Below are positions 1-21,260 of a stretch of DNA of 45,587 nucleotides, piece by piece. How positions within the stretch are numbered: position 1 is the first letter of the stretch; the number at the start of each line of letters is the position of its first letter. Origin of the DNA: a virus (lineage: Duplodnaviria; Heunggongvirae; Uroviricota; Caudoviricetes); the IMG/VR virus record IMGVR_UViG_2597489870_000004. One strand, 5' to 3'. Position numbers and translations under genes: made by a program. The notes below the pieces were generated by a model. The model saw only the letters and a list, made by a program, of their open reading frames with translations, had not been told where the DNA came from and did no database searches.

Positions 1-837
1 GTGCAAAAGAATGGCGATACCTTGTCCGGTGGGCTTACTTTTGAAAACGACTCAATCCTTGCCTGGATTCGAAATACTGACTGGGCGAAGATTGGATTTA
101 AAAATGATGCCGACAGCGATACTGATTCATTCATGTGGTTTGAAACAGGCGACAACGGCAATGAATATTTCAAATGGAGAAGCCGCCAGGGCACCACAAC
201 AAAAGACCTGATGACGCTGAAATGGGATGCACTAAATATTCTTGTTAATGCCGTCATTAATGGCAGCCTTGGAGTTGGTACGACGAATGCGTTAGGTGGT
301 AGCTCTATTGTTCTTGGTGATAATGATACCGGATTTAAACAGAATGGAGACGGTATTCTGGATGTTTACGCTAATAGTCAGCGAGTATTCCGCTTTCAGA
401 ATGGAGTGGCTATTGCTTTTAAAAACATTCAGGCAGGTGATAGTAAAAAATTCTCGCTATCCAGCTCCAACAACTCTACGAAGAACGTAAGGTTTAATTT
501 ATGGGGCACTTCATCAAGACCAACTGTTGCAGAGCTTGGTGATGATTCAGGCTGGCATTTCTATAGTCAGCGAAATACAGATAACTCGGTAATATTTTCT
601 GTTAACGGTCAGATACAGCCCAGCAACTGGGGGAATTTTGATTCACGCTATGTAAAAGATGTTCGCCTGGGTACGCGAGTTGTTCAATTGATGGCGCGTG
701 GTGGTCGTTATGAAAAAGCAGGACACGCAATTACCGGATTAAGAATCATTGGTGAAGTAGATGGCGATGATGAAGCCATCTTCAGACCAATACAAAAATA
801 CATCAATGGCACATGGTATAACGTAGCACAGGTGTAA
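1..837 (+). CDS. Alternate side-tail-fibre C-terminal segment (Sv'-like), 5'-partial at window edge; no own start in window
   Basis: ORF open from base 1; N-terminus (QKNGDTLSGG) resembles residues just after the recombination site of the minus-strand stf gene (QKKQNGADIPG); followed directly by a tfa-like gene; convergent with the expressed stf-tfa pair. Confidence 0.55.
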   Translation: MQKNGDTLSGGLTFENDSILAWIRNTDWAKIGFKNDADSDTDSFMWFETGDNGNEYFKWRSRQGTTTKDLMTLKWDALNILVNAVINGSLGVGTTNALGGSSIVLGDNDTGFKQNGDGILDVYANSQRVFRFQNGVAIAFKNIQAGDSKKFSLSSSNNSTKNVRFNLWGTSSRPTVAELGDDSGWHFYSQRNTDNSVIFSVNGQIQPSNWGNFDSRYVKDVRLGTRVVQLMARGGRYEKAGHAITGLRIIGEVDGDDEAIFRPIQKYINGTWYNVAQV

Positions 838-840
838 ATT

Positions 841-1368
841 ATGCAGCATTTAAAAAATATTAAGTCAGGAAATCCAAAAACAAAAGAGCAATATCAGCTA
901 ACAAAGAATTTTGATGTTATCTGGTTATATACAGAAGACGGTAAAAACTGGTATGAGGAAGTAAATAGCTTTCAGGAAGACACCATAAAGATTGTTTACG
1001 ACGAAAATAATATTATTGTTGCCATAACCAAAGATGCCTCAACGCTTAATCCCGAAGGCTTTAGTGTCGTTGAGATTCCAGATATAACAGTCAATCGTCG
1101 TGCCGATGATTCAGGGAAGTGGATGTTTAAGGACGGAACTGTGGTTAAGCGGATTTATACAGCAGACGAACAGCAACAACAGGCCGAATCACAAAAGGCC
1201 GCATTGCTTTCCGAAGCTGAATCAGTCATCCAGCCACTGGAACGCGCTGCCAGGCTGAATATGGCAACAGACGAGGAGCGCACACGACTGGAGTCATGGG
1301 AACGCTACAGTGTTCTGGTCAGCCGTGTGGATACGGCAAATCCTGAATGGCCACAAAAGCCTGAATAA
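841..1368 (+). CDS. tfa: Tail fibre assembly protein (alternate copy, Tfa/U'-like)
   Basis: 175-aa ORF starting [23 protein letters not shown]-terminal signature shared with the minus-strand tfa copy and with phage Tfa proteins. Confidence 0.8.
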
Positions 1369-1394
1369 AAATTAAGGCCCGCTATCGGGCCTTG
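1366..1394 (-). terminator. Hairpin terminator between convergent tfa genes
   Basis: Stem AAGGCCCG / CGGGCCTT (1375-1394) with loop CTAT; T-run follows on the minus strand; lies 3 nt below the stop of the minus-strand tfa and just after the plus-strand tfa. Confidence 0.45.
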
Positions 1395-1396
1395 TC

Positions 1397-1930
1397 TCAT
1401 TCAGGTTGTTCGGGAAACGTTACTGGCAGGCTGGAAGTGTCTGTAGATTCGACTTTCTGCGCAAAGAGTATCCACTCTGTTAATTTTTGTTTACTCTCGT
1501 CGGAAATGATGCCCAGCCGTAGCTGTGAGTCCCATAACTGGGTTTTATCCCTGACAAGTTGCAACAGGCTTTGCTTTTCATTCTCTGCCTGCTGCCTCTG
1601 CTCTTCCCCGGTATAAGTTCGCTTTATCACTACGCCATCTTTGAACATCCATTTACCCGAAATATCAGCCCGGCGATTTGCTGTAATATCAGGTAATTCA
1701 ACGACGCTTGCGCCTTCTGGATTAATTGCTGAAACATCCTTTTCAATACAAATAATAACGCCGTTACGGTCATAGACCATTTTCAACGTATCAGGCTGAA
1801 AGTTCTTTTGTTCCTCATACCAGTTTTTTCCATCATCTGAATAAAGCCATTTGATGTTAAATTGTTTCGTTAGCTGGTATTGCTCTTTTGTTTTAGGGTT
1901 GCCAGCAGTAATGTTTTTTAAGTGCATCAT
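1397..1930 (-). CDS. tfa: Tail fibre assembly protein
   Basis: 177-aa [33 protein letters not shown], immediately downstream of stf; Tfa family signature. Confidence 0.85.
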   Translation of the reverse strand: MMHLKNITAGNPKTKEQYQLTKQFNIKWLYSDDGKNWYEEQKNFQPDTLKMVYDRNGVIICIEKDVSAINPEGASVVELPDITANRRADISGKWMFKDGVVIKRTYTGEEQRQQAENEKQSLLQLVRDKTQLWDSQLRLGIISDESKQKLTEWILFAQKVESTDTSSLPVTFPEQPE

Positions 1931-1932
1931 AA

Positions 1933-4900
1933 TTAAATACTCCCCGCGTTATACCACCTTCCATTAATGCAATACTGAATTGGCCTTGCCTGAGTTGTAT
2001 CAATTAATTCATCACGGTTTCCGTTAACTGAACCCGTAACGACATAACCTGACCTGTCAGACCAGCCGGGACCATTCCATGTCTGAACAGATGACAGACC
2101 GCCCAGGCGAATACCTGTAATAAACCTTGAGTTACATTCTGCCTGCGTATATGCACCAACATCCCCCGCAGAGGGTTTGCGGGTTGTGGTGTAAAACTCT
2201 GACCAGTTAGCTTCAAAGCCATAACCATCACGCGCTGAACGATAAAAGATACCGCCGTTTTTATAATTCACGCGGAACTGTACAGCAGGGCAACTCCCCG
2301 CATTCATATTAAAGTGGAGGATTAATGTCGATGCGCCACTGATATCTGCATCATAAACGCCGCTATTCCAGTTCCAGCCAACAGCTTTATCATTTGCAAC
2401 CCTGCTTCCTGTTTGCCCTAAAGCAAATGCAGGCTGCTGGTTTTTCGTGTTGTAGTCTCGTCGCCAGCCAGGAGCATAAGCATCACCATGATTAATATAG
2501 GTGAATTGAGCGTTAGTAATTCCGCCACCGCTGGATGTACTCGGCGTAGTAACGCGTATGGTCATTGCGCCGCGAGTGCCAATAACTTCCACCACAGCAC
2601 CTGCAAGACAAATATTTCCGCAACCTGTATCTGTAATGACCTTATTGTTTGCATAAGCCCATGAGCCTTTGCACATCCAGTAAGGATGGTTAAATGCCCC
2701 CTGACTCTCCAGCCACGAAATGAATTGTGCGGTTGTCCAGGTCTGACTATCGCCACCAATATTCAGCCATGCGCTATATGCGCGGCAGGCACCAATATTT
2801 TTGGTGAAGGTATCTTTTCCTGGAATATCTGCGCCGTTCTGTTTTTTCTGTAATGCGCCAGAAGCCTGATTTACCGTTTCCTGTAAACCGAGGTATTCGA
2901 TAACAGCGGCAACGGTCGATTTCGCAAGAATATCCCGCCCGACTTTTGTCAGAGTTGCCAGGCTGGCGACATCATTCCCCGTAAAATACGGAAACTTGTC
3001 TGCCGCAGTAGCAAGCCCGGCCAGCGCCGTCAGGGTGGCATCTTTCGGTTGCTTACCCGCAAGCGCTTTAGTCATGGTGGTCGCAAAATTCGGGTCGTTT
3101 CCCAGCGCCGCCGCTAACTCGTTCAACGTATTCAGTGCGTCAGGCGACGAGTCTACAAGTGCGGCAATCGCGGCCATCACATAAGCCGTGCTTGCGATCT
3201 GAGTATTATTAGTCCCTTTTGGCGCAGTTGGCGTTGTTGGCGTTCCGGTCAGTGCAGGACTATTTAAGGGCGCTTTCTTGTTCGTTTCATCCATTACCGC
3301 CTTAACAGCTTTTGGCGTCGCAGCCAGCGTTTCAGATGTGCTGTTAGTGGCGCTACTGAGCTGAACTATCCCTTTTCGTGCCGTCGTTGCGTCCTGAGCG
3401 GTATATTTTGCGTTAGCAAGGTCATATGCTGCCTTTACTGCCTTTGGTGTTGCCGCCAGTGACTCGGAAGTGCTGTTAGTGGCGCTACTGAGCTGAACTA
3501 TCCCTTTTCGTGCCGTCGTTGCGTCCTGAGCGGTATATTTTGCGTTAGCAAGGTCATAGGCTGCTTTTACTGCCTTTGGCGTTGCCGCCAGCGTTTCAGA
3601 CGTGCTGTTGGTCGCACTGCTGAGCTGTACTATCCCCTTTTTCGTCGTGCTCGCATCCTCAAGCGCCACGGCGGATGCAATATCCTCTGCCCGTTTTGCC
3701 GCTGTCTCGGCGCGCGTTGCCGCGGATTCCGCCGTACTTTTGCTCTGAGCTGCCGCCGTCGCACTGCCAGCTGCCTCTGTCGCCTTCGTGGATGCCGTCG
3801 TGGCGCTGCCCTTTGCTGCTGACGCCTGTCTGGTCGCCTCATCTTTTGAAGCAGACGCAGATGATGCCGATGACGCCGCCGAACTGGCGGACGATGCGGC
3901 AGCCGTTTTTGAGGATTCTGCGCTGGTTTCCGACGCTTTCGCGTTCGTCTCGGATGTCTTCGCTGCGGAAGCAGACCTCGCTGCTGCGCTGGCCTGTACA
4001 GCGGCTTCGCCAGCATTCGTTGTGGCTGTTGAAGCGGACGATGCAGCACTTTCTGCCGATTTTCCGGCGGCGGTGGCACTGGCTGAGGCCTGCCCGGCAC
4101 TTGTTGACGCGGCACTGGCAGACGACGCAGCCGCTGTTTTTGAGCCTGCCGCAGCTGAGGCGCTCTGTCCCGCTGCCGTTTCAGAAGACCTGGCGTTCGT
4201 CTCGGACGTTTTTGCCGCCTTCGCAGAATTTGCTGCCGCCGTTGCCGAGGAAGCTGCGCTGCTGGCGCTCGAGGCTGCGTTCGTTTCTGATGATTTTGCC
4301 GCCTCTTTTGAAGCCGACGCATCCCGTGCTGAAGTGGCTGCTTCTGACGCTTTCGTGGTCGCAGTGGATGCAGAAGTGGCTGCTGATTGTTGTGACACTG
4401 CCGCATTCGTTTCTGACGTTTTCGCCGCACCGGCACTGGTAGCCGCCGCGCTTTTTGAGGACTCTGCAGCGGCAGCACTTTTTGATGCCTCAGAGGCTTT
4501 TGCTGATGCCGTTCCTGCGCTGGAAGACGCTGACTGAGCCGACGACGCGGCCTGTCCGGCTGACGTGCTGGCTGCACGTGCTGAGCCTGCAGCATCAGTC
4601 GCATGGGTTGCCGCCTCACGGGCAGATGTGCTGGCATCACTGGCTGACTTCTTCGCGGCTGCCGTGTTCTGTGCCACTGCGGACGCGTTACGCGCCACCT
4701 CTTCCACCATCAGTTCAAAACGTCGCAATGCCTCCGGACGGGCATCATCCTCCGTCATGGCACCGAGAAAATCATTCAGCGTACCGGGTTGAGAATCTTC
4801 ATACACGGTGATGGTCCCGGCATGTGACGGCGGGAATCCCTCCACCAACAGAATAACGCTGTACTGACCGTACTCAACGTCCATGCTGTAACGCCCGGCT

Positions 4901-5034
4901 TCATCCGGATTTTCTGAGGCCAGCGTGTTCACCACCACCGTGGTGCTGTTACGTTTTGCTTTCAGCTGGATTGTGCAGTTCTGTACCGGTTTTCCTGTGC
5001 CGTCTTTCAGTACACCTGAAATCTTTACTGCCAT
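1933..5034 (-). CDS. stf: Side tail fibre protein Stf (lambda Stf-like N-terminal two-thirds, different C-terminal receptor domain)
   Basis: Translation MAVKISGVLKDGTGKPVQNCTIQLKAKRNSTT... matches the remembered lambda Stf N-terminus through the Ala/Ser-rich region; start set at second ATG (5034) with GGGGTG upstream; first ATG is at 5040. Confidence 0.9.
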   Translation of the reverse strand: MAVKISGVLKDGTGKPVQNCTIQLKAKRNSTTVVVNTLASENPDEAGRYSMDVEYGQYSVILLVEGFPPSHAGTITVYEDSQPGTLNDFLGAMTEDDARPEALRRFELMVEEVARNASAVAQNTAAAKKSASDASTSAREAATHATDAAGSARAASTSAGQAASSAQSASSSAGTASAKASEASKSAAAAESSKSAAATSAGAAKTSETNAAVSQQSAATSASTATTKASEAATSARDASASKEAAKSSETNAASSASSAASSATAAANSAKAAKTSETNARSSETAAGQSASAAAGSKTAAASSASAASTSAGQASASATAAGKSAESAASSASTATTNAGEAAVQASAAARSASAAKTSETNAKASETSAESSKTAAASSASSAASSASSASASKDEATRQASAAKGSATTASTKATEAAGSATAAAQSKSTAESAATRAETAAKRAEDIASAVALEDASTTKKGIVQLSSATNSTSETLAATPKAVKAAYDLANAKYTAQDATTARKGIVQLSSATNSTSESLAATPKAVKAAYDLANAKYTAQDATTARKGIVQLSSATNSTSETLAATPKAVKAVMDETNKKAPLNSPALTGTPTTPTAPKGTNNTQIASTAYVMAAIAALVDSSPDALNTLNELAAALGNDPNFATTMTKALAGKQPKDATLTALAGLATAADKFPYFTGNDVASLATLTKVGRDILAKSTVAAVIEYLGLQETVNQASGALQKKQNGADIPGKDTFTKNIGACRAYSAWLNIGGDSQTWTTAQFISWLESQGAFNHPYWMCKGSWAYANNKVITDTGCGNICLAGAVVEVIGTRGAMTIRVTTPSTSSGGGITNAQFTYINHGDAYAPGWRRDYNTKNQQPAFALGQTGSRVANDKAVGWNWNSGVYDADISGASTLILHFNMNAGSCPAVQFRVNYKNGGIFYRSARDGYGFEANWSEFYTTTRKPSAGDVGAYTQAECNSRFITGIRLGGLSSVQTWNGPGWSDRSGYVVTGSVNGNRDELIDTTQARPIQYCINGRWYNAGSI
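2878..2903. other. gix/hix-like 26-bp recombination site for a serine invertase, inside stf
   Basis: Sequence ttcctgtaaaccgaggtattcgataa closely resembles the remembered Mu gixL site (TTCCTGTAAACCGAGGTTTTGGATAA); positioned at the constant/variable boundary of the tail fibre. Confidence 0.55.
3338..3733 (-). repeat. Three tandem in-frame 132-bp repeats (44-aa units) within stf
   Basis: Direct repeat unit starting gtgctgttagtggcgctactgagc at 3338 and 3470 (near identical), third diverged copy from 3602; encodes repeated GIVQLSSATNSTSE(T/S)LAATPKAVKA... modules. Confidence 0.8.
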
Positions 5035-5044
5035 ATTCACCCCA

Positions 5045-5072
5045 CAAAAAAGCCCGCCTGAACCGGCGGGCT
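5045..5072 (-). terminator. Rho-independent terminator downstream of lom
   Basis: Hairpin agcccgcc-tgaacc-ggcgggct (5051-5072) followed on the minus strand by a T6 run. Confidence 0.6.
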
Positions 5073-5098
5073 GTCATAACACTGTGTTACCTGGCTAA

Positions 5099-5698
5099 TC
5101 AGAATTTATAACCAACACCCACGATGAACCCGTCAGTGCGCCAGTCGCCACTACCGGAGCCTTCATAAGCGACATCAATGGCCACGGATTCGGTCGGGTT
5201 AAACTGCACGCCAGCTCCCCACGCCAGAGACGTGTTGCTGTGGCGACCGTCATCACTTCCGGTCAGCACATCGTGCGTTTTCCCCTTGTTGTCAGTTACG
5301 CGGATATAATCTCCGGAGAAAGTCGAAACACGGCTGTAAGCCATACCCGCCATCGCATACGCGCTGAACCATTCATTCACGCGCACAGACGGCCCCGCCA
5401 TCACGCTGAACCAGCGGTTACGCACGAAATCCTCATGCCAGCGGGTATCGCTGTAATGCGTTTTTTGCTCATCTTCAGCGTTGGCATAACTGAATGACGT
5501 AATCAGCCCCAGCGTGTCCGTAAACTCATAACGGTATTTCACGTTAATCCCGTTCAGATTATCGCTGCCGGGAGCGTTCGTACGGGCATGAAGATACCCT
5601 GCGCTCAGTGTGGCCTGCTGCTCAGACGCCCATGCAGGCGCACCGGATACGGCCAGACAGATGGCTGCGGACAAAATGGCTGCACAAACTTTACGCAT
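5099..5698 (-). CDS. lom: Lom outer membrane protein (Ail/PagC/Lom family beta-barrel)
   Basis: 199-aa ORF with signal peptide and C-terminus ...AYEGSGSGDWRTDGFIVGVGYKF identical in style to lambda Lom; located between J and stf as in lambda. Confidence 0.9.
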   Translation of the reverse strand: MRKVCAAILSAAICLAVSGAPAWASEQQATLSAGYLHARTNAPGSDNLNGINVKYRYEFTDTLGLITSFSYANAEDEQKTHYSDTRWHEDFVRNRWFSVMAGPSVRVNEWFSAYAMAGMAYSRVSTFSGDYIRVTDNKGKTHDVLTGSDDGRHSNTSLAWGAGVQFNPTESVAIDVAYEGSGSGDWRTDGFIVGVGYKF

Positions 5699-5721
5699 AA
5701 TTACCTCTCGCTTTTCTGCAA

Positions 5722-5746
5722 TAAAAAAGGCGCCATTTCTGGCGCC
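5722..5746 (-). terminator. Rho-independent terminator downstream of J
   Basis: Hairpin ggcgccatttctggcgcc (5729-5746) followed on the minus strand by a T-run. Confidence 0.55.
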
Positions 5747-5765
5747 CGTATATGGGTTATAAAAT

Positions 5766-8700
5766 TCAGCTGATACTGATGCCTGCGGTGGCTTTCTTCA
5801 TCACCACAACCAGCAAATCGCTGATACTTGCTGTGGGATACCAGTCATTTACCAGCCATGCTGACACCGAAAACTCCAGCGTCATGTGGCCGTGACCAGC
5901 TGGCATATCAATAACACCACTGTAAATCAGCGTATTATCCAGCGCGGTACGGTTATAAATTTCAGCACCATTTTTCTTCACTATCAGGCGGCATGACGAA
6001 TAAATATCGTTATTCTCCCGCTCATGTTTAGCGCCGCAGAATGCCACCGCCGGAATAACAATTTGCCTGTCAAAAGGCTGATCGTCATAAATCCTGACGG
6101 TAATGGTCCCTGATGGCCACCGCTCCGGTGCCCGGGAGTCCCGCGGAAAAGCCTTACCCACTGTTTTGACAATATCGCCTTCAATCTGGTTGGCTGACAG
6201 TTTCCCTTTAATCTGACAGTTCTCATTTATCGTAACGTTGTTGAGCGTCCCGGCGTTAGCATTCACACTGCCACTGATATCCGCATTTTTCGCCGTCAGT
6301 CGCCCGTCCGGTGTCAGGGAAAATGCCGGATGATTACCGCCGCTGGTAATGGTGGGAGCCGTCAGATATTTCAGGAACACTTCATTCATGAATATCTGAT
6401 CACCCTGACCAACAAACATCGGTTTTGTGTTGCCATTTGCAGGATTAATCATCGCAATCCTGTCCGCCGCCAGCAGCACCTGACTCTGCATGCCGTCAGG
6501 GGTGTTCTCAATACCGGCACCAATACCCGCGATATAAAGGCGTCCGTCCTGCATCTGCTGCAGCTTCACAGCCCACATGCTGTTCAGGTTATTATTTGTA
6601 TCAACCTGAACCTTCTGTATCTGCTGAATTGCCGCACTCTGGTCTTCCAGTTTCTTATTGACGGTCTGCGTGATTTCATTGCTGACATCCGTAATGGACG
6701 TCCTGATTTCAGTCAGGTCAGGCGCAAGCTGACCGTTATCAATCTGCGTCCACAGCTCCTGAGCCAGATGGGTTTTCCCTATCTCGCCTTTGAAAAAATC
6801 CAGATAGCCGGATGCATCATCACTCGGCTGACCAACAGCCTCCACGAATGCCGATTTGCCAACGGTGTTCACACTGCGAACGTAAAAATAATAATCATGG
6901 CCCGGTTTGATATTGATACTGGCGGCTATCCAGTACAGCGCCGTACCAAGATAACGCGCGCTGGTTTCAACCTGCCTGATATCAGCAATCCGTTTTTCCG
7001 AGAACCAGAACTCAAACTGTACCGTCGGATCATAAACCGCAAGATGCGGCGTGGCGGTTATCTGAAAATAGCCCGGCGTCAGCTCAATCCGCGACGGTGC
7101 TGCCGGTGCGGCAATCCGGAACAATACCGACGCCGGATCGCCCTGCTGCCCCCAGGCATTTGCCGCCCTGACTGTCAGCCTGTAGTTTCCCAGCGCCAGT
7201 TGCGTGAAGCGGTATGTGGTTTCCGTCGTCCGGGCCGTGCTGACCAGCCGCTCACTGCCGTCGTCTGCTGCCACAGTCAGGCGAAGCATAAAGCTCACCC
7301 CCTTCACCACCTTCGGCGTGTCCCATCGCGCCAGCACCTGATATTCCCCGCTGTCTGCAGTGACTTCGGCGGTCAGATGCTGCACTGCTGACGGCGTGAC
7401 ACCATTCACCGTGCCGCTCTGATCACCGTCAAAGTGCGCCCCGTTATCCACGATGGCCTCTTTCTCCGGCACATGCTGCACGGCAGTGATGGCATACGTG
7501 CCGTCGTCGTTCTCACGGATACTCACGCAGCGGAACAGGCGCTGGCGCAGCGTCGGCAGCTTAAGCCCCCACACGCTGTATTCAGCAACACCGTCAGGAA
7601 CCCGGCTCACTTTTACCTTCACGCCGTCGGTGACGGACTGAACCTCCACGCTGACCGGACTCCCCTGCCCGTCAACCAGGCTTATCAGCGTGGTGCCGGA
7701 GGCTGGCAGCGTGATTTCACGGTCGAGCGTCAGTGTCCGCGTCTGGCTGTTCACCGCCAGCACGCGCCCGCCGGTGCTGATGCCCGCATAGTCATCATCG
7801 CAGATTTCAATGACATCGCCCGGTACATGGCGAAGCCCTTCGGCACCCACGCTGAAGTCCACGGTCTGCGTTTCCAGCAGTTCCGTTTTAATCAGCCACA
7901 GCCCGGCTCGGTGTGCCTGCCCCCGACTGGTACAACCAAAGGCATCCATCTTCGTGACATTACGACCGTAACGGGCAATGGCCTGCGTATCTTCAACAAG
8001 CTCTGTCGCCGTCTCCCAACCGTTGTTCGGGTCAATCCAGTTCACCTCAACGGCATTATGGCGGTCCTTCAGGGCGCTGAAGCTGTAGCGGAACGGCGCG
8101 CCATCATCCGGCATCACCACATTACTGCGGTTATAGGTCCACACCTTATCCGACGGTCGGTCCTGCACGAACGTCAGCGTCTGCCCGTTCCATACCGGCA
8201 TACAGCGCATCGCCGAGCAGAAATCACTGAGCACATCCCACGCCTTGCGCTGTGTGGTCAGGTAAGCGTTACAGGTGATGCGCGGCTCCGTGCCGCCAAA
8301 GCCGTTCGGCACCGACTGGTCGCAATTCTGGCCGATGACATACAGCGCCCATTTATCCACATCCGCCACACCAAGACGTTTCCCCATGCCGTAGCGCGGA
8401 TGGGTCAGCATATCCCACAGACACCAGGCCATGTTGTTGCTGTATGCTGGCTTAAACGTTCCGTCCCAGATACCGCTGTATTGCCGCGTCTGCGGGTTAT
8501 AGTTCGACGGCACCTGCAGAATGCGCCCGCGCAGATGATAATTACGGCTCACCTGCTGGCTGCCGAACTGCTCCGAGTCCACCTGCACGCCGACCAGTGC
8601 CGTGTTCGGGTAGCCCTGTTTCACATCGATGATTTCGGTGTATGACGACCAGAGCGTTTTGTTCTGCAGCTGGTCTGTGGTGCTGTCCGGCGTCATCCTG

Positions 8701-9245
8701 CGCATCCGTATATTGAACGGGCGCGGCGGCAGGTTACCCACCACCACCGAGGCCAGATACTGCGAGGTGGTTTTGCCCTTAATGGTGATGTCTTTTTCCG
8801 TCACCCAGCCACCATTACGCTGGATCTGAACCAGCAGGCGGACTTCCGACGGATTCCGGTCCCCCTTTGAGGTGGTTTCCACCAGTGCCTGCACACCGAA
8901 GGTAAAGCGCAGACGGTCGATGTTTGCAGACGTGATGGTCCGGGTGATCGGCGTGTCGTATTTCACTTCCGTACCCAGCACCGTCTCGGAACCGGAGGAT
9001 TCAAATCCCTCCGGCGGTGTCTGCTCCTGCTCACCTGCCCGGAACACCACCGTGACACCGGAGATGTTGGTATTCCCCTCACTGTCCAGCACCGGTGTAC
9101 TGTTCAGCAGCACGCTTTTTAATCCATCCACCGGACCTTCAATCGGCCCTTCGCTGATGGCATCGATCACACTCAGCAGCTGCGTGGATTTCAGGTTATC
9201 CTTCGCTTCGCGCGGGGTATGCCCCTTACTGCTGCCTTTACCCAT
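5766..9245 (-). CDS. J: Tail tip / host specificity protein J
   Basis: 1159-aa ORF starting [48 protein letters not shown], matching remembered lambda J; position after I. Confidence 0.95.
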
Positions 9246-9305
9246 TCGTCATGCTCCATAAACGACAAAACCGCCCGGAGGCGGTTTCACATAAAACATT
9301 TTGCA

Positions 9306-14636: not shown

Positions 14637-15040
14637 TTTCCCGCAGAAACAGGCTCTGCTGGCCCGGCGTCATCTGCCTGTTCAGGTGCATCATTCACAA
14701 CAAACTCAGACATACCGGACAGACGCATTACCACATTTTCAGCCTGAGCAATTGCCTCTGTGGGCCAGGTGGTAAGCACTTCCTGCTCAATTTGTTTAAC
14801 GGCTTCATTCATGGACGGCATCTTTGTCTTCTGCGGATGGCTATGCCACAGGGACATCGCCACCAGAAAAGCACCGGTTCTGACGAGATCTTCCACGCTC
14901 ACCTGTCGATTGAGACTGGATCCCGCCTGTTCTGCCTGTCGTTTCAGCAGGGCGAGATGCTCAATTCGCTGCAGGGCTGACAGTTCAGAAAGCGTGACGC
15001 TCACACCGTTATATTCAAATGATTCGGTTTTCAGGAACAT
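14618..15040 (-). CDS. G: Tail assembly chaperone G
   Basis: 140 aa MFLKTESFEYNGVSVTLSELSALQRIEHLALLKRQAEQ..., ends ...SAGKCSTVS as remembered for lambda G. Confidence 0.95.
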   Translation of the reverse strand: MFLKTESFEYNGVSVTLSELSALQRIEHLALLKRQAEQAGSSLNRQVSVEDLVRTGAFLVAMSLWHSHPQKTKMPSMNEAVKQIEQEVLTTWPTEAIAQAENVVMRLSGMSEFVVNDAPEQADDAGPAEPVSAGKCSTVS

Positions 15041-17587: not shown

Positions 17588-18560
17588 TTACGCCAGTTGT
17601 ACGGACACGAACGCATCAGGATCAGCCAGCAGCATCAGCGGTGCTGACTGAATCATGGTGAACTCACGCGCCGGATCGCCGGTGGTCACCCAGTTTTTCG
17701 GGTAGCGGGCAGAGGCGTTAATACCTTCGCGCTGTGCGTCCGCATCCTGAATGCAGCCATAGGTGCGCAGACCGCGTGCCTGAGTGTTCCCCAGCACCAT
17801 CGTGTTGTCCGGCAGGAAGTTCTTTTTGACGTCGTTTTCCACGTACTGTCCGGAATACACGACGATCGCCGTATCGCCATACATCCCCTTATAGGACACC
17901 GCTTCGCCCAGGTCTTTTACCGCTGTCTCCAGTTCGGAATGAGAGCCGCGACGGGTATCCAGCTTCTCCCTGACGGCTTTGAAGGAACGGAACAGCGCCC
18001 AGCCTTTCGGATCAAACACGATGATATTCACCACGCCGCTGGCGTTCAGCGCGTAGGCTTCGATATCGTCGGTCGGGTCATACGTGGACTTGTCACGCTT
18101 GCTCCACTCCGTGCCGCCGGACTGCGTGATGTTGTTCGCCGCACTGCGGCCCATATCCACCTCAACCGGATCGAAGGCTTCACCGGTCATGGTGTATTTG
18201 CCCTTGAGCACGGCAGAAACTGCCTGCATCTCTTCGACCTGAGCAATGGCCAGCTCTTCGTCACGCATGTTCTGCAGGATGATGCGACGGCGGCGGTAAG
18301 CCGGGTCCGCCAGATTCTGCGGATCTTCATCCGGCAGGCGACGCAGGGTCATCTGCGGATTCACTTCATGCTTGGGTTTGACATATCCCGGCGTAAATTC
18401 AGAGGTGGAGCCGCCACGGGAACGGATAACCTCACCGGAAACAATCGGCGAAACGTACAGCGCCATGTTTACCAGTCCCGGAATTTGTGAGAGATAGACT
18501 TTCTCCGTAGTGAAGGGATAGCTCTCACGGAAAAAGAGACGCAGAAACAGCGGATCAAAC
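17588..18560 (-). pseudogene. E: Major capsid protein E, 3' fragment (codons about 19-341), separated from its start by an IS insertion
   Basis: Frame reads FDPLFLRLFFRESYPFTTEKVYLSQIPGLVNMALYVSPIVSGEV... to ...FVSVQLA, matching lambda E; upstream boundary is the IS inverted repeat at 18561. Confidence 0.9.
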
Positions 18561-18590
18561 GTAAGCGACTCGTCAGAACCGTATTGATAT

Positions 18591-20162
18591 TTACTGAGAG
18601 CTCAGATCAACTTTCCAGGGCAACAGATCGCGTACCCGGTTTGCCGGCCAATCCTGGATATGTTCAATGACGTAACGCAGCCACTTTTCTGGCTCCACAT
18701 TGTTCAGACGGCATGTGCCGATCAGCGAGTACAACACCGCCGCATGTTCACCACCGCTGTCGGAACCCGCGAACATCCAGTTTTTCCGGCCTACGGCCAC
18801 TCCCCGTAAGGCGTTCTCTGCGATGTTGTTGTCGATTTCCACCCAGCCATTACTGCAGTACACGTTCAGTGCATCCCACTGTTTCAGCAGGTATGCGAAC
18901 GCTTTTGCCGTATCTGAGTGACGCGACAGTGTTTTCATCTGTTGCTGTATCCAGTCATACAGTGACTGCATCAGTGGCGCGGCTCTGGCTTTTCTTGCCG
19001 CCAGACGCTGTTCTGCTGAACAGCCCCGGACCTCTGCCTCGATGGCATACAGTTCACCGATACGCTGCAGGGCTTCCGTGGTGATGTAGGTGGGCGCTCT
19101 TGCATGCACATCGTGGATTTTTCTCCGGGCATGAGCCATACACGCGGCTTCCGTTATTCTGCCGGATTCGTATAACGCCCGGTAACCACCGTAAGCATCG
19201 GCCTGAAGCACACCGCTGTAACCGGCCAGGTGATTTTGTGGATGGATACCTTTCCGGTCCGGACTGTACGCGAACCAGACCGCCGGGGGCATCTGTGAAC
19301 CGGCGTTACGGTCATCACGGACGTAGACCCACAGCCGGGCTGTCCGGGTTTTACCGCTGCCCGGCTCCTGGACCGGGACGGGGATATCATCAGCATGGAC
19401 TTTACCGGGCATCAGCACATACTGGCGCAGGACGTCATACAGCGGCTCCAGCAGTTCAGCAACAGCACCTGTCCAGCGCCCCAGTGTGGCACGGCTCAGC
19501 TCCACTCCCTGACGACGGTATATTTCTGACTGGCGGTATAACGGCAGATGGTCTGCATATTTCCCGGTGACAACATGGGCCAGAAGCCCCGCTCCGGCAT
19601 AACTGCGTGCAATGGGTTTTGAAGGTACTGGTGCCTGCACGATATGGTCGCACCGGCAACAGGCCTGTTTCGGACGTTGTGTTTCGATAACCTTAAAGGC
19701 GCTGCTGATAAGCTCCAGTTGCTCTGACACATCACATCCCAGAGAACTGAGTTCACCACCACAGGCAGGACAGCATTCCTCTTCCGGCCGGATAACCCGG
19801 GTTTCACGGGGAAGTGAGGCCGGTAACGGTTTACGGGCTGAAGACTGGCGCAGGGCGGATGGCAGTACCGGGTCATATTGCTCACCCAGCGTTTCCGCCA
19901 TTTCTTCCTGAAGTGCGCTGATTCGCTCCTGTGCTTCCTGTATCTGCCGTTCGGTTTTTGCACGAAGTTTTTCTGAGCTTTTACCGAACTGCATACGTTG
20001 CAGTTTCGCAACCAGCGCCTTCAGCCGGTTGATTTCGGAAGCATAAGCCGCCACCCGCTGTGAGAGCAGGCGGTTGTATTCAGCCATCTGGCGGATGGTG
20101 TCCTGTTGCGTCTGCAACAGTGCCCGCAGGCGGGCGTTCTCATGAGCAAGTGAGGTGTCCAT
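18591..20162 (-). CDS. tnpC: IS66-family transposase TnpC (orf3)
   Basis: 523 aa; N-terminal leucine-zipper-like region, CxxC...CxxC zinc motif, C-terminal DDE-type region as in IS66 transposases. Confidence 0.85.
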
Positions 20163-20181
20163 ATCCTCACTTTACAACGGG

Positions 20182-20529
20182 TTATATGCGGATTCCAGCG
20201 CGTTCCGTTCGTTTCGGGTGCTTCCAGTTGATACCTTCAAGAAGCATGGATAACTGAGCCGGAGTAAGGTGCACCTTGCCGTCACGGGTGACTGGCCAGA
20301 CGAAGCGGCCCCGCTCCAGGCGTTTGGTGAAGAGGCACAGTCCGTCACTGTCAGCCCACAACACTTTTATCTGGTCACCCCGGCGTCCGCGGAAGATGAA
20401 CAGGTGTCCGGAGAACGGGTCATCCTTCAGGACGTTCTGAACTTTTGATGCCAGGCCGTTAAAGCCATTTCGCATATCGGTGATACCTGCAACCAGCCAG
20501 ATACGCGAACCTGCAGGGAGAGATATCAT
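20182..20529 (-). CDS. tnpB: IS66-family Orf2 (TnpB)
   Basis: 115 aa, MISLPAGSRIWLVAGITDMRNGFNGLA... characteristic of IS66 orf2 proteins. Confidence 0.85.
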   Translation of the reverse strand: MISLPAGSRIWLVAGITDMRNGFNGLASKVQNVLKDDPFSGHLFIFRGRRGDQIKVLWADSDGLCLFTKRLERGRFVWPVTRDGKVHLTPAQLSMLLEGINWKHPKRTERAGIRI

Positions 20530-21206
20530 CAGTGGCTGCTCCCTTTTATTTCGCGGATAAGTGTCTGTAATAACGCCGGCGTCAGTTTACCTTTAAGCCT
20601 GAGAGTTCCGGCCGGCAGAACCAGCTCACAACACAGACTGTCGGACGGTGTATTTATCTGCTCTGGTTCCTGTGCGGGGGCCGGGATTTTATTATCCGGC
20701 TCCGGCGTTAACGTCACGGGAAGCAGTGCCGGCATATTTTTTCCGGAAGGCAGCAGGCCACCTTTCCGGTATTGATGGCGCCAGTTGAAGAGCAGGTTAT
20801 CGTTGATTCCGTTTTCCCGGGCGATCTGCGCCACACAGGCTCCGGGCTGCAGTGACTGCTCCACTAAGGCGATTTTAAACTCATAAGGGAAGTTGGGCCG
20901 CCGGGGACGTTTTTTTACCACGGGGGCTTCGGATATAACGGTGCTTTCAGGACGTACGACTGGTACCGTGGAAAATTGTCCGTAAAGGCAGGCATCAAGT
21001 TCCTGCTCCGACATGCCTGCGGGTAAAGGCCACGAAAGGCCAGCTCTCCGAAAGCGCACGAACATACTACAAACTGTTGATTTTGGTACACCCAGGCGAC
21101 GCCCGGCCACAACCCGGGGTAAATGTTCTTCAAAGTGAAGACGTAAAGCTTCAGTGATCCAGGTCCGGTGTTTCATACGATAGTGTCCATTAAAAATGAT
21201 GGACAT
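20529..21206 (-). CDS. tnpA: IS66-family accessory protein (orf1) with HTH region
   Basis: 225-aa ORF, first of three IS ORFs, contains transposase-type HTH segment (NFPYEFKIALVEQSLQPGACVAQIARENGINDNLLFNWRHQYRKG); true start may be downstream. Confidence 0.6.
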   Translation of the reverse strand: MSIIFNGHYRMKHRTWITEALRLHFEEHLPRVVAGRRLGVPKSTVCSMFVRFRRAGLSWPLPAGMSEQELDACLYGQFSTVPVVRPESTVISEAPVVKKRPRRPNFPYEFKIALVEQSLQPGACVAQIARENGINDNLLFNWRHQYRKGGLLPSGKNMPALLPVTLTPEPDNKIPAPAQEPEQINTPSDSLCCELVLPAGTLRLKGKLTPALLQTLIREIKGSSH

Positions 21207-21260
21207 TATTTTTGTAGAGCCGGAGGAAACAGACCAGACGGTTTAAATGAGCCGGTTACG

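Follow-up and report, generated by a model that had tools for sequence, protein, structure and literature searches.

A Mu G-type invertible tail-fibre segment on a lambdoid prophage of enterotoxigenic Escherichia coli H10407 lies beside a dead invertase gene and is probably inverted in trans

The stretch of DNA analysed here (the window, 45,587 nucleotides, IMG/VR virus record IMGVR_UViG_2597489870_000004) was found by sequence search to be 100% identical to the chromosome of enterotoxigenic Escherichia coli (ETEC) H10407 (NC_017633.1). It carries a lambdoid prophage, with base 1 at the tail-fibre end and the integrase gene at the right edge, which adjoins potB in H10407; the chromosomal locus L001, in which window base 1 is position 6001, reaches potB 6 kb further left. 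The side tail fibre gene (stf) of this prophage very probably bears an orphaned invertible cassette of the Mu G type that is flipped in trans by a related invertase from elsewhere in the cell. Specifically, we propose that a G-segment-type cassette of the Gin/Cin/Pin/Hin ('Din') family of serine invertases has been grafted onto stf beside potB. As assembled, Stf ends in a tip of Mu S'/P1 S type and is made together with a U'-type chaperone; after inversion the constant part would instead be fused, still in frame, to a tip of P2 H type, and a U-type chaperone would accompany it. The invertase gene at the locus is dead yet keeps DNA equivalent to the recombinational enhancer, and a related invertase from another element in the same cell would carry out the inversion. 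Neither the class (Mu G, P1 C and e14 P) nor the module with a dead invertase beside it (prophage Phi4 of E. coli EC958) is new.

The original prediction placed a site nearly identical to Mu gix inside stf, at the junction of its constant and variable parts, and this is borne out. The 26-bp right site, TTCCTGTAAACCGAGGTATTCGATAA (Table 1), agrees at 24 of 26 positions with the sequence of both gix sites in the Mu genome, TTCCTGTAAACCGAGGTTTTGGATAA, occurs once in the window, and was matched in 0 of 100 shuffles even with three mismatches allowed. Its central dinucleotide is GA, its inner half, TTCCTGTAAACC, is the same as in Mu, its outer half, GGTATTCGATAA, is constant stf sequence, and it is read in frame, as ..IEYLGLQE.., within the 1035-amino acid (aa) open reading frame (ORF) of stf. 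The same 26-mer is the Phi4_5prime site of EC958 (PMC4134206, Table 3). A second crossover site had been expected just past base 1, and an inverted copy, TTCCTGTAAACCGAGGTTTTAGATAA, does lie 25-50 bp to the left of it, agreeing with Mu gix at 25 of 26 positions and giving, from its outer half, an in-frame TAA stop to the silent cassette. From site to site the segment measures 2953 bp (chromosome positions 1332531-1335483), and the pair was reported by a repeat finder as a 34-nt inverted repeat, 94% complementary, with a perfect run of 25 bp in common; both have central GA/TC and inner halves as in Mu, and their differences are confined to the outer halves. Two inverted 26-bp sites with the same central dinucleotide are thus present, as in the Din family. 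There is no second site inside the window, where a search allowing up to three mismatches gave one match; 16-mer matches at 15022 and 23309 were considered as sites and rejected, having three mismatches each and unlike surrounding context.

Between the sites are two convergent cassettes, each made up of a fibre C-terminus and its cognate chaperone, which is also the Din-family arrangement. The minus strand carries the variable part of stf followed by a tail-fibre assembly (tfa) gene, the plus strand a second tfa gene and a fibre C-terminus that lacks its own start codon, and a GC-rich, terminator-like hairpin stands between them, a layout in line with the original prediction. Both chaperone genes hit the Pfam family Caudo_TAP, and the constant part of stf is cotranscribed with J and lom. 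When the segment was inverted in silico an intact Stf of 1007 aa resulted, the last 493 residues of which are identical to the annotated Stf of strain ETEC-2264, so that the site at the constant/variable junction yields an in-frame fibre from either orientation. No unusual promoter or regulatory feature was seen within the segment, promoter-like and terminator-like matches being at or below chance expectation with the exception of the central hairpin. In the RefSeq annotation of H10407 the silent tip is labelled 'hypothetical protein' and the invertase remnant 'recombinase family protein', and the crossover sites and invertible segment are unmarked.

The relatives of the segment agree with the sites in pointing to the Mu G and P1 C type of architecture that had been predicted. 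Its DNA is 92-94% identical to the Mu G segment over the aligned parts, except for some 540 bp in the central part of the silent tip. At the protein level the expressed tip shares 96% identity with the variable part of Mu S' and 97% with the P7 S C-terminus (P7/P1 S type), and its chaperone is 95% identical to Mu U'; the silent chaperone is 94% identical to Mu U, and the silent tip is 47% identical to Mu S and 94% identical to the C-terminus of phage P2 gpH. By homology, then, the expressed tip is assigned to the Mu S'/P1 S type and the silent tip to the P2 H type. The segment is also found, at 94-98% DNA identity to window positions 1-3000, in P2-like prophages of other E. coli strains, where it stands beside an intact 195-aa invertase and is attached to a P2 H-type constant part: in FDAARGOS_1059 (locus L012, 2809-7403) the identity is 98% and in TUM9812 (locus L013, 2809-7667) it is 94.5%. 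The module thus moves between phages of the Mu-like, P1-like, P2-like and lambdoid kinds.

The switch would be self-contained if an intact gin/pin gene adjoined the segment, and the invertase gene expected beyond base 1 is there in part: a gene of the gin/pin family starts about 105 bp to the left of base 1 and, like gin in Mu, points outward from the segment. However, it is only a stub of 64 Gin-like codons, with three residue differences from Gin among them, which ends where codon 65, an arginine CGA codon in Gin, Cin and PinE, has become a TGA stop. Beyond the stop about 14 codons resemble pinE/cin, and the sequence then joins, after about codon 79, the 3' end of a tfa gene. The first 190 bp are 93.7% identical to Mu gin; Pfam matches positions 2-73 of 145 of the Resolvase model, and the remainder of the catalytic domain and a helix-turn-helix domain are absent. 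The resident invertase is dead and its gene a pseudogene, so the intact serine invertase gene that adjoins segments of the Din family is missing from the H10407 locus. An error in the H10407 assembly could in principle have created the stub; this is unlikely, because the same stub is present in dozens of independent assemblies. We therefore give next to no credence to a self-contained switch, which the sequence refutes, and since the resident gene is a stub, an invertase acting in trans would be needed.

The stub does keep a stretch homologous to the annotated enhancer of P7 cin, in which one base differs from Mu gin. Homology suggests that it could still act as the recombinational enhancer in cis and bind Fis into the reaction, dependence on Fis being taken from the family. 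The stub is also a mosaic (L001 5650-5706, window about -350 to -294), gin-like to codon 64 and pinE/cin-like in codons 66-79, which suggests an old recombination between two invertase genes, preceding the deletion that fused the stub to the tfa fragment. To its left is a class I S-adenosylmethionine (SAM)-dependent methyltransferase gene (L001 4524-5674, window -1476 to -326) flanked by two tfa 3' fragments that share a 76-bp repeat; the methyltransferase stretch was matched in 3885 of 5426 E. coli genomes and is a very frequent passenger at lambdoid prophage ends.

The segment has been inverted between strains that share this stub. ETEC-2264 has the same prophage, insertion site and 64-aa stub as H10407 with the segment inverted, and in both strains each outer half-site has stayed beside its own flank, which is what exchange at the site centres should produce; the paper on the ETEC reference genomes makes no mention of inversions. 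In the Bangladeshi ETEC isolates E8 and E54 the flanks are identical over 9384 + 405 + 1093 bp (no differences in 10.9 kb) and the segment is precisely inverted, the sole differences being the four bases of the swapped outer half-sites. Junction probes were run more widely, against 5426 complete E. coli genomes, a genome being counted when at least 80% of the probe was covered: the stub joined to the end of the silent tip was present in 212 genomes and the stub joined to the other end of the segment in 135. Read together, these comparisons indicate that inversion has been repeated and recent in lineages whose resident invertase was already dead, and because it occurred in such lineages an invertase supplied in trans would be required. 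Both orientations are thus found between strains, and within one culture only for the homologous Phi4 of EC958. The prophage of E54 (locus L008, 3448-7238) has been deleted between a tape-measure fragment and distal stf and retains the segment, the stub and the methyltransferase gene, the segment being flipped relative to the clonal E8.

These inversions could also have been made without any invertase, through homologous recombination by RecA at the short inverted repeats, and the perfect 25-bp run that they share fits this, as a crossover anywhere within it would give the same product. However, RecA-dependent recombination needs about this length of homology at the least. The inverted tfa genes are far longer, but are just 55% identical in protein, and no junctions were seen there. 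Moreover, at the homologous locus of EC958 the alternative orientation was abundant enough in one culture to give a separate contig. We consider recombination by RecA a very improbable source of the inversions.

An enzyme acting in trans has precedent, as cross-activity inside the invertase family is established: inversion of the e14 P segment is catalysed by PinE, PinQ and PinR alike, and that of Mu G by PinE (PMC12529663). Candidate helpers in H10407 were counted with a chimeric query in which a single-copy anchor was joined to a probe for the 3' half of Mu gin. The anchor alone gave one matching place in H10407 and the anchor with the probe gave four, so that three further places in the chromosome would carry the part of an invertase that the stub lacks, and we regard these as candidate helpers. 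Matches to the 3' half of Mu gin are common in the species (3173 of 5426 E. coli genomes); H10407 was absent from the best 60 records of that search.

The main rival to inversion in trans is that the segment is a frozen fossil, once invertible and now locked in the S'-type orientation in H10407 with no enzyme acting on it. Several points weigh in that direction or limit our proposal. The resident invertase is dead, and H10407, SEC470 and 90-9280 all have one orientation, the latter two being identical to H10407 over the region. The three candidate helpers are known as a count only and no intact helper has been located, the sites that e14 (icd), Rac (ttcA) and Qin (ydfJ-rspB) occupy in K-12 holding no prophage in H10407. 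The 80% cut-off of the junction counts might just admit an intact invertase gene beside the same junction, and the stub-tfa fusion joint was seen to be spanned among the 40 matches listed for each junction search (40/40 each). Finally, continued flipping in H10407 itself, and the identity of the enzyme that would be responsible, are inferences on our part. Against a locked segment stand its two intact sites, which have the central GA in common and half-sites identical to ones that recombine in Mu and EC958; the near-clonal pair E8 and E54 together with the 212/135 split, which show inversion after the death of the invertase; and the three further matches in H10407 to the 3' half of an invertase. 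On this balance we hold a locked segment to be unlikely and retain inversion in trans.

The closest parallel to inversion in trans is prophage Phi4 of EC958, whose crossover sites are TTATCGAATACCTCGGTTTACAGGAA and TTATCTAAAACCTCGGTTTACGAGAA, whose invertase is severely truncated and for which PacBio contigs of both orientations were obtained from one culture; its authors proposed that it is acted on in trans by a different invertase (Forde et al., 2014; PMC4134206). Like the H10407 element, Phi4 is a lambdoid prophage with an identical stf-side 26-mer, the same outer half-site on the invertase side, and a truncated invertase fused to a tfa fragment and followed by the same methyltransferase cargo. 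The stub, tfa fragments and methyltransferase cargo are 97.7% identical between the two over 1429 bp, and the fusion joint is the same. However, Phi4 is at another chromosomal site, near trpA and ompW, its segment is 3106 bp long and differs in content, with tfa genes about 79% identical in DNA, and its stub has extra stop codons.

Mu G and Gin are alike in the 26-bp sites, in the DNA of the aligned parts and of the first part of gin, and in the order variable tip, U, U', variable S' tip, with chaperones of 175 and 177 aa in both. They differ in that the H10407 carrier is a lambdoid prophage with a lambda-type Stf rather than Mu S as the constant part, in the P2 H type of one tip, and in the state of the invertase gene. 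The C segment of P1/P7 and its invertase Cin follow the same scheme, in which a constant part is joined to a variable part with a chaperone, and share the P7 S-like tip, whereas 5 of 26 positions are different in the cix sites, an intact cin stands at the other side, and the C segment exceeds that of H10407 in size. The e14 P segment of K-12 is likewise an invertible part of a fibre locus, carried by a defective lambdoid prophage and inverted in trans by the invertases of other prophages; unlike the H10407 gene, pinE is intact, the stub having about 74% DNA identity to it, and the pix sites are more divergent. The P2-like prophages share the segment and, in FDAARGOS_1059, an identical 177-aa tfa protein, but there the constant part belongs to a myovirus baseplate and tail gene cluster and the adjoining invertase is intact.

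The original prediction spoke of a host-range switch, which overstates the case for H10407. The prophage genes for terminase, portal, protease, tape measure, J, replication, repressor and integrase look full length; however, its lambda E-like major capsid gene is broken after about codon 20 by an IS66-family element. Because this element splits the gene, the prophage is probably unable to make heads or infectious particles, and a carrier that makes such particles, on which a working host-range switch depends, is not what H10407 has. For the same reason the fibre switch is probably a relic that does nothing, at present, to the host range of particles made by the H10407 prophage alone.

Table 1. 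Positions of the crossover sites, the two cassettes, the invertase stub and the interrupted capsid gene. Positions refer to the window unless another locus is named.
Feature	Position	Strand	Remarks
Left crossover site, 26 bp, inverted	L001 5951-5976 = window -49 to -24		Sequence match
Right crossover site, gix-type, 26 bp	2878-2903		Sequence match to Mu gix
Invertase stub	-298 to -104 (chromosome 1335538-1335732)	-	RefSeq 'recombinase family protein'
Silent alternative fibre C-terminus	1-837; frame truly opens at left crossover site	+	No start codon of its own
Silent chaperone gene (tfa), 175 aa	841-1368	+	Homology to Mu U
Hairpin, GC-rich, 8 pairs, terminator-like	1374-1393 (L001 7374-7393)		Between convergent cassettes; T-run after it on minus strand
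Expressed chaperone gene (tfa), 177 aa	1397-1930	-	Homology to Mu U'
Expressed variable Stf C-terminus	1933-2877	-	Homology to Mu S', P7/P1 S
Constant N-terminal part of Stf	2904-5040	-	phage_tail_N (Prophage tail fibre N-terminal) domain, Ala/Ser-rich tract, three Phage_fiber_2 repeats
stf ORF, side tail fibre, 1035 aa	1933-5040	-	
IS66-family element, three ORFs	~18500-21300; ORFs 20529-21206, 20182-20529, 18591-20162	-	
Major capsid gene pieces	~21300 and 17588-18466		Either side of IS66-family element

Some further features of the prophage were noted in passing. Within stf a 132-bp tandem repeat of 2.6 copies (3299-3641) encodes the Phage_fiber_2 repeats, and the tract rich in Ala, Ser and Thr that precedes them (about 3650-4700) is of low complexity and accounts for a number of long spurious ORFs on both strands. 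As in phage lambda, J and stf are separated by a gene for an outer-membrane protein of the Ail/Lom family (5099-5698). The late regulatory region of the prophage holds tRNA genes for Arg(tct), Arg(tcg) and Met(cat) (30368-30617), with a gene for a 349-aa DNA methyltransferase adjoining (30667-31716).

The orphan segment might be maintained for the benefit of the bacterium and not of the phage, with the invertases of other prophages as its regulators. A phase-variable fibre or chaperone would then block receptors or interfere with incoming phages, as reported for e14 StfE2, or alternatively would provide alternative fibre tips for co-resident phages or tailocins. The basis for this is thin, consisting of the retention of the module, still being flipped, where a prophage is otherwise heavily deleted, as in E54, and of the precedent of e14 StfE2, together with the more than 340 E. 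coli genomes that, by the 80%-coverage junction counts, have the segment, the dead stub and the methyltransferase gene; we consider maintenance for the host quite improbable.

The finding carries little weight beyond annotation. It marks a locus that can lead to misassembly, or to false differences between strains when ETEC genomes are compared, and, if inversion in trans is correct, it would add a further clear case of an invertible segment that has outlasted its own invertase and come under the control of the enzymes of other prophages. As such it would be relevant to recent claims of a role in host defence for inversions of this kind (PMC12529663).

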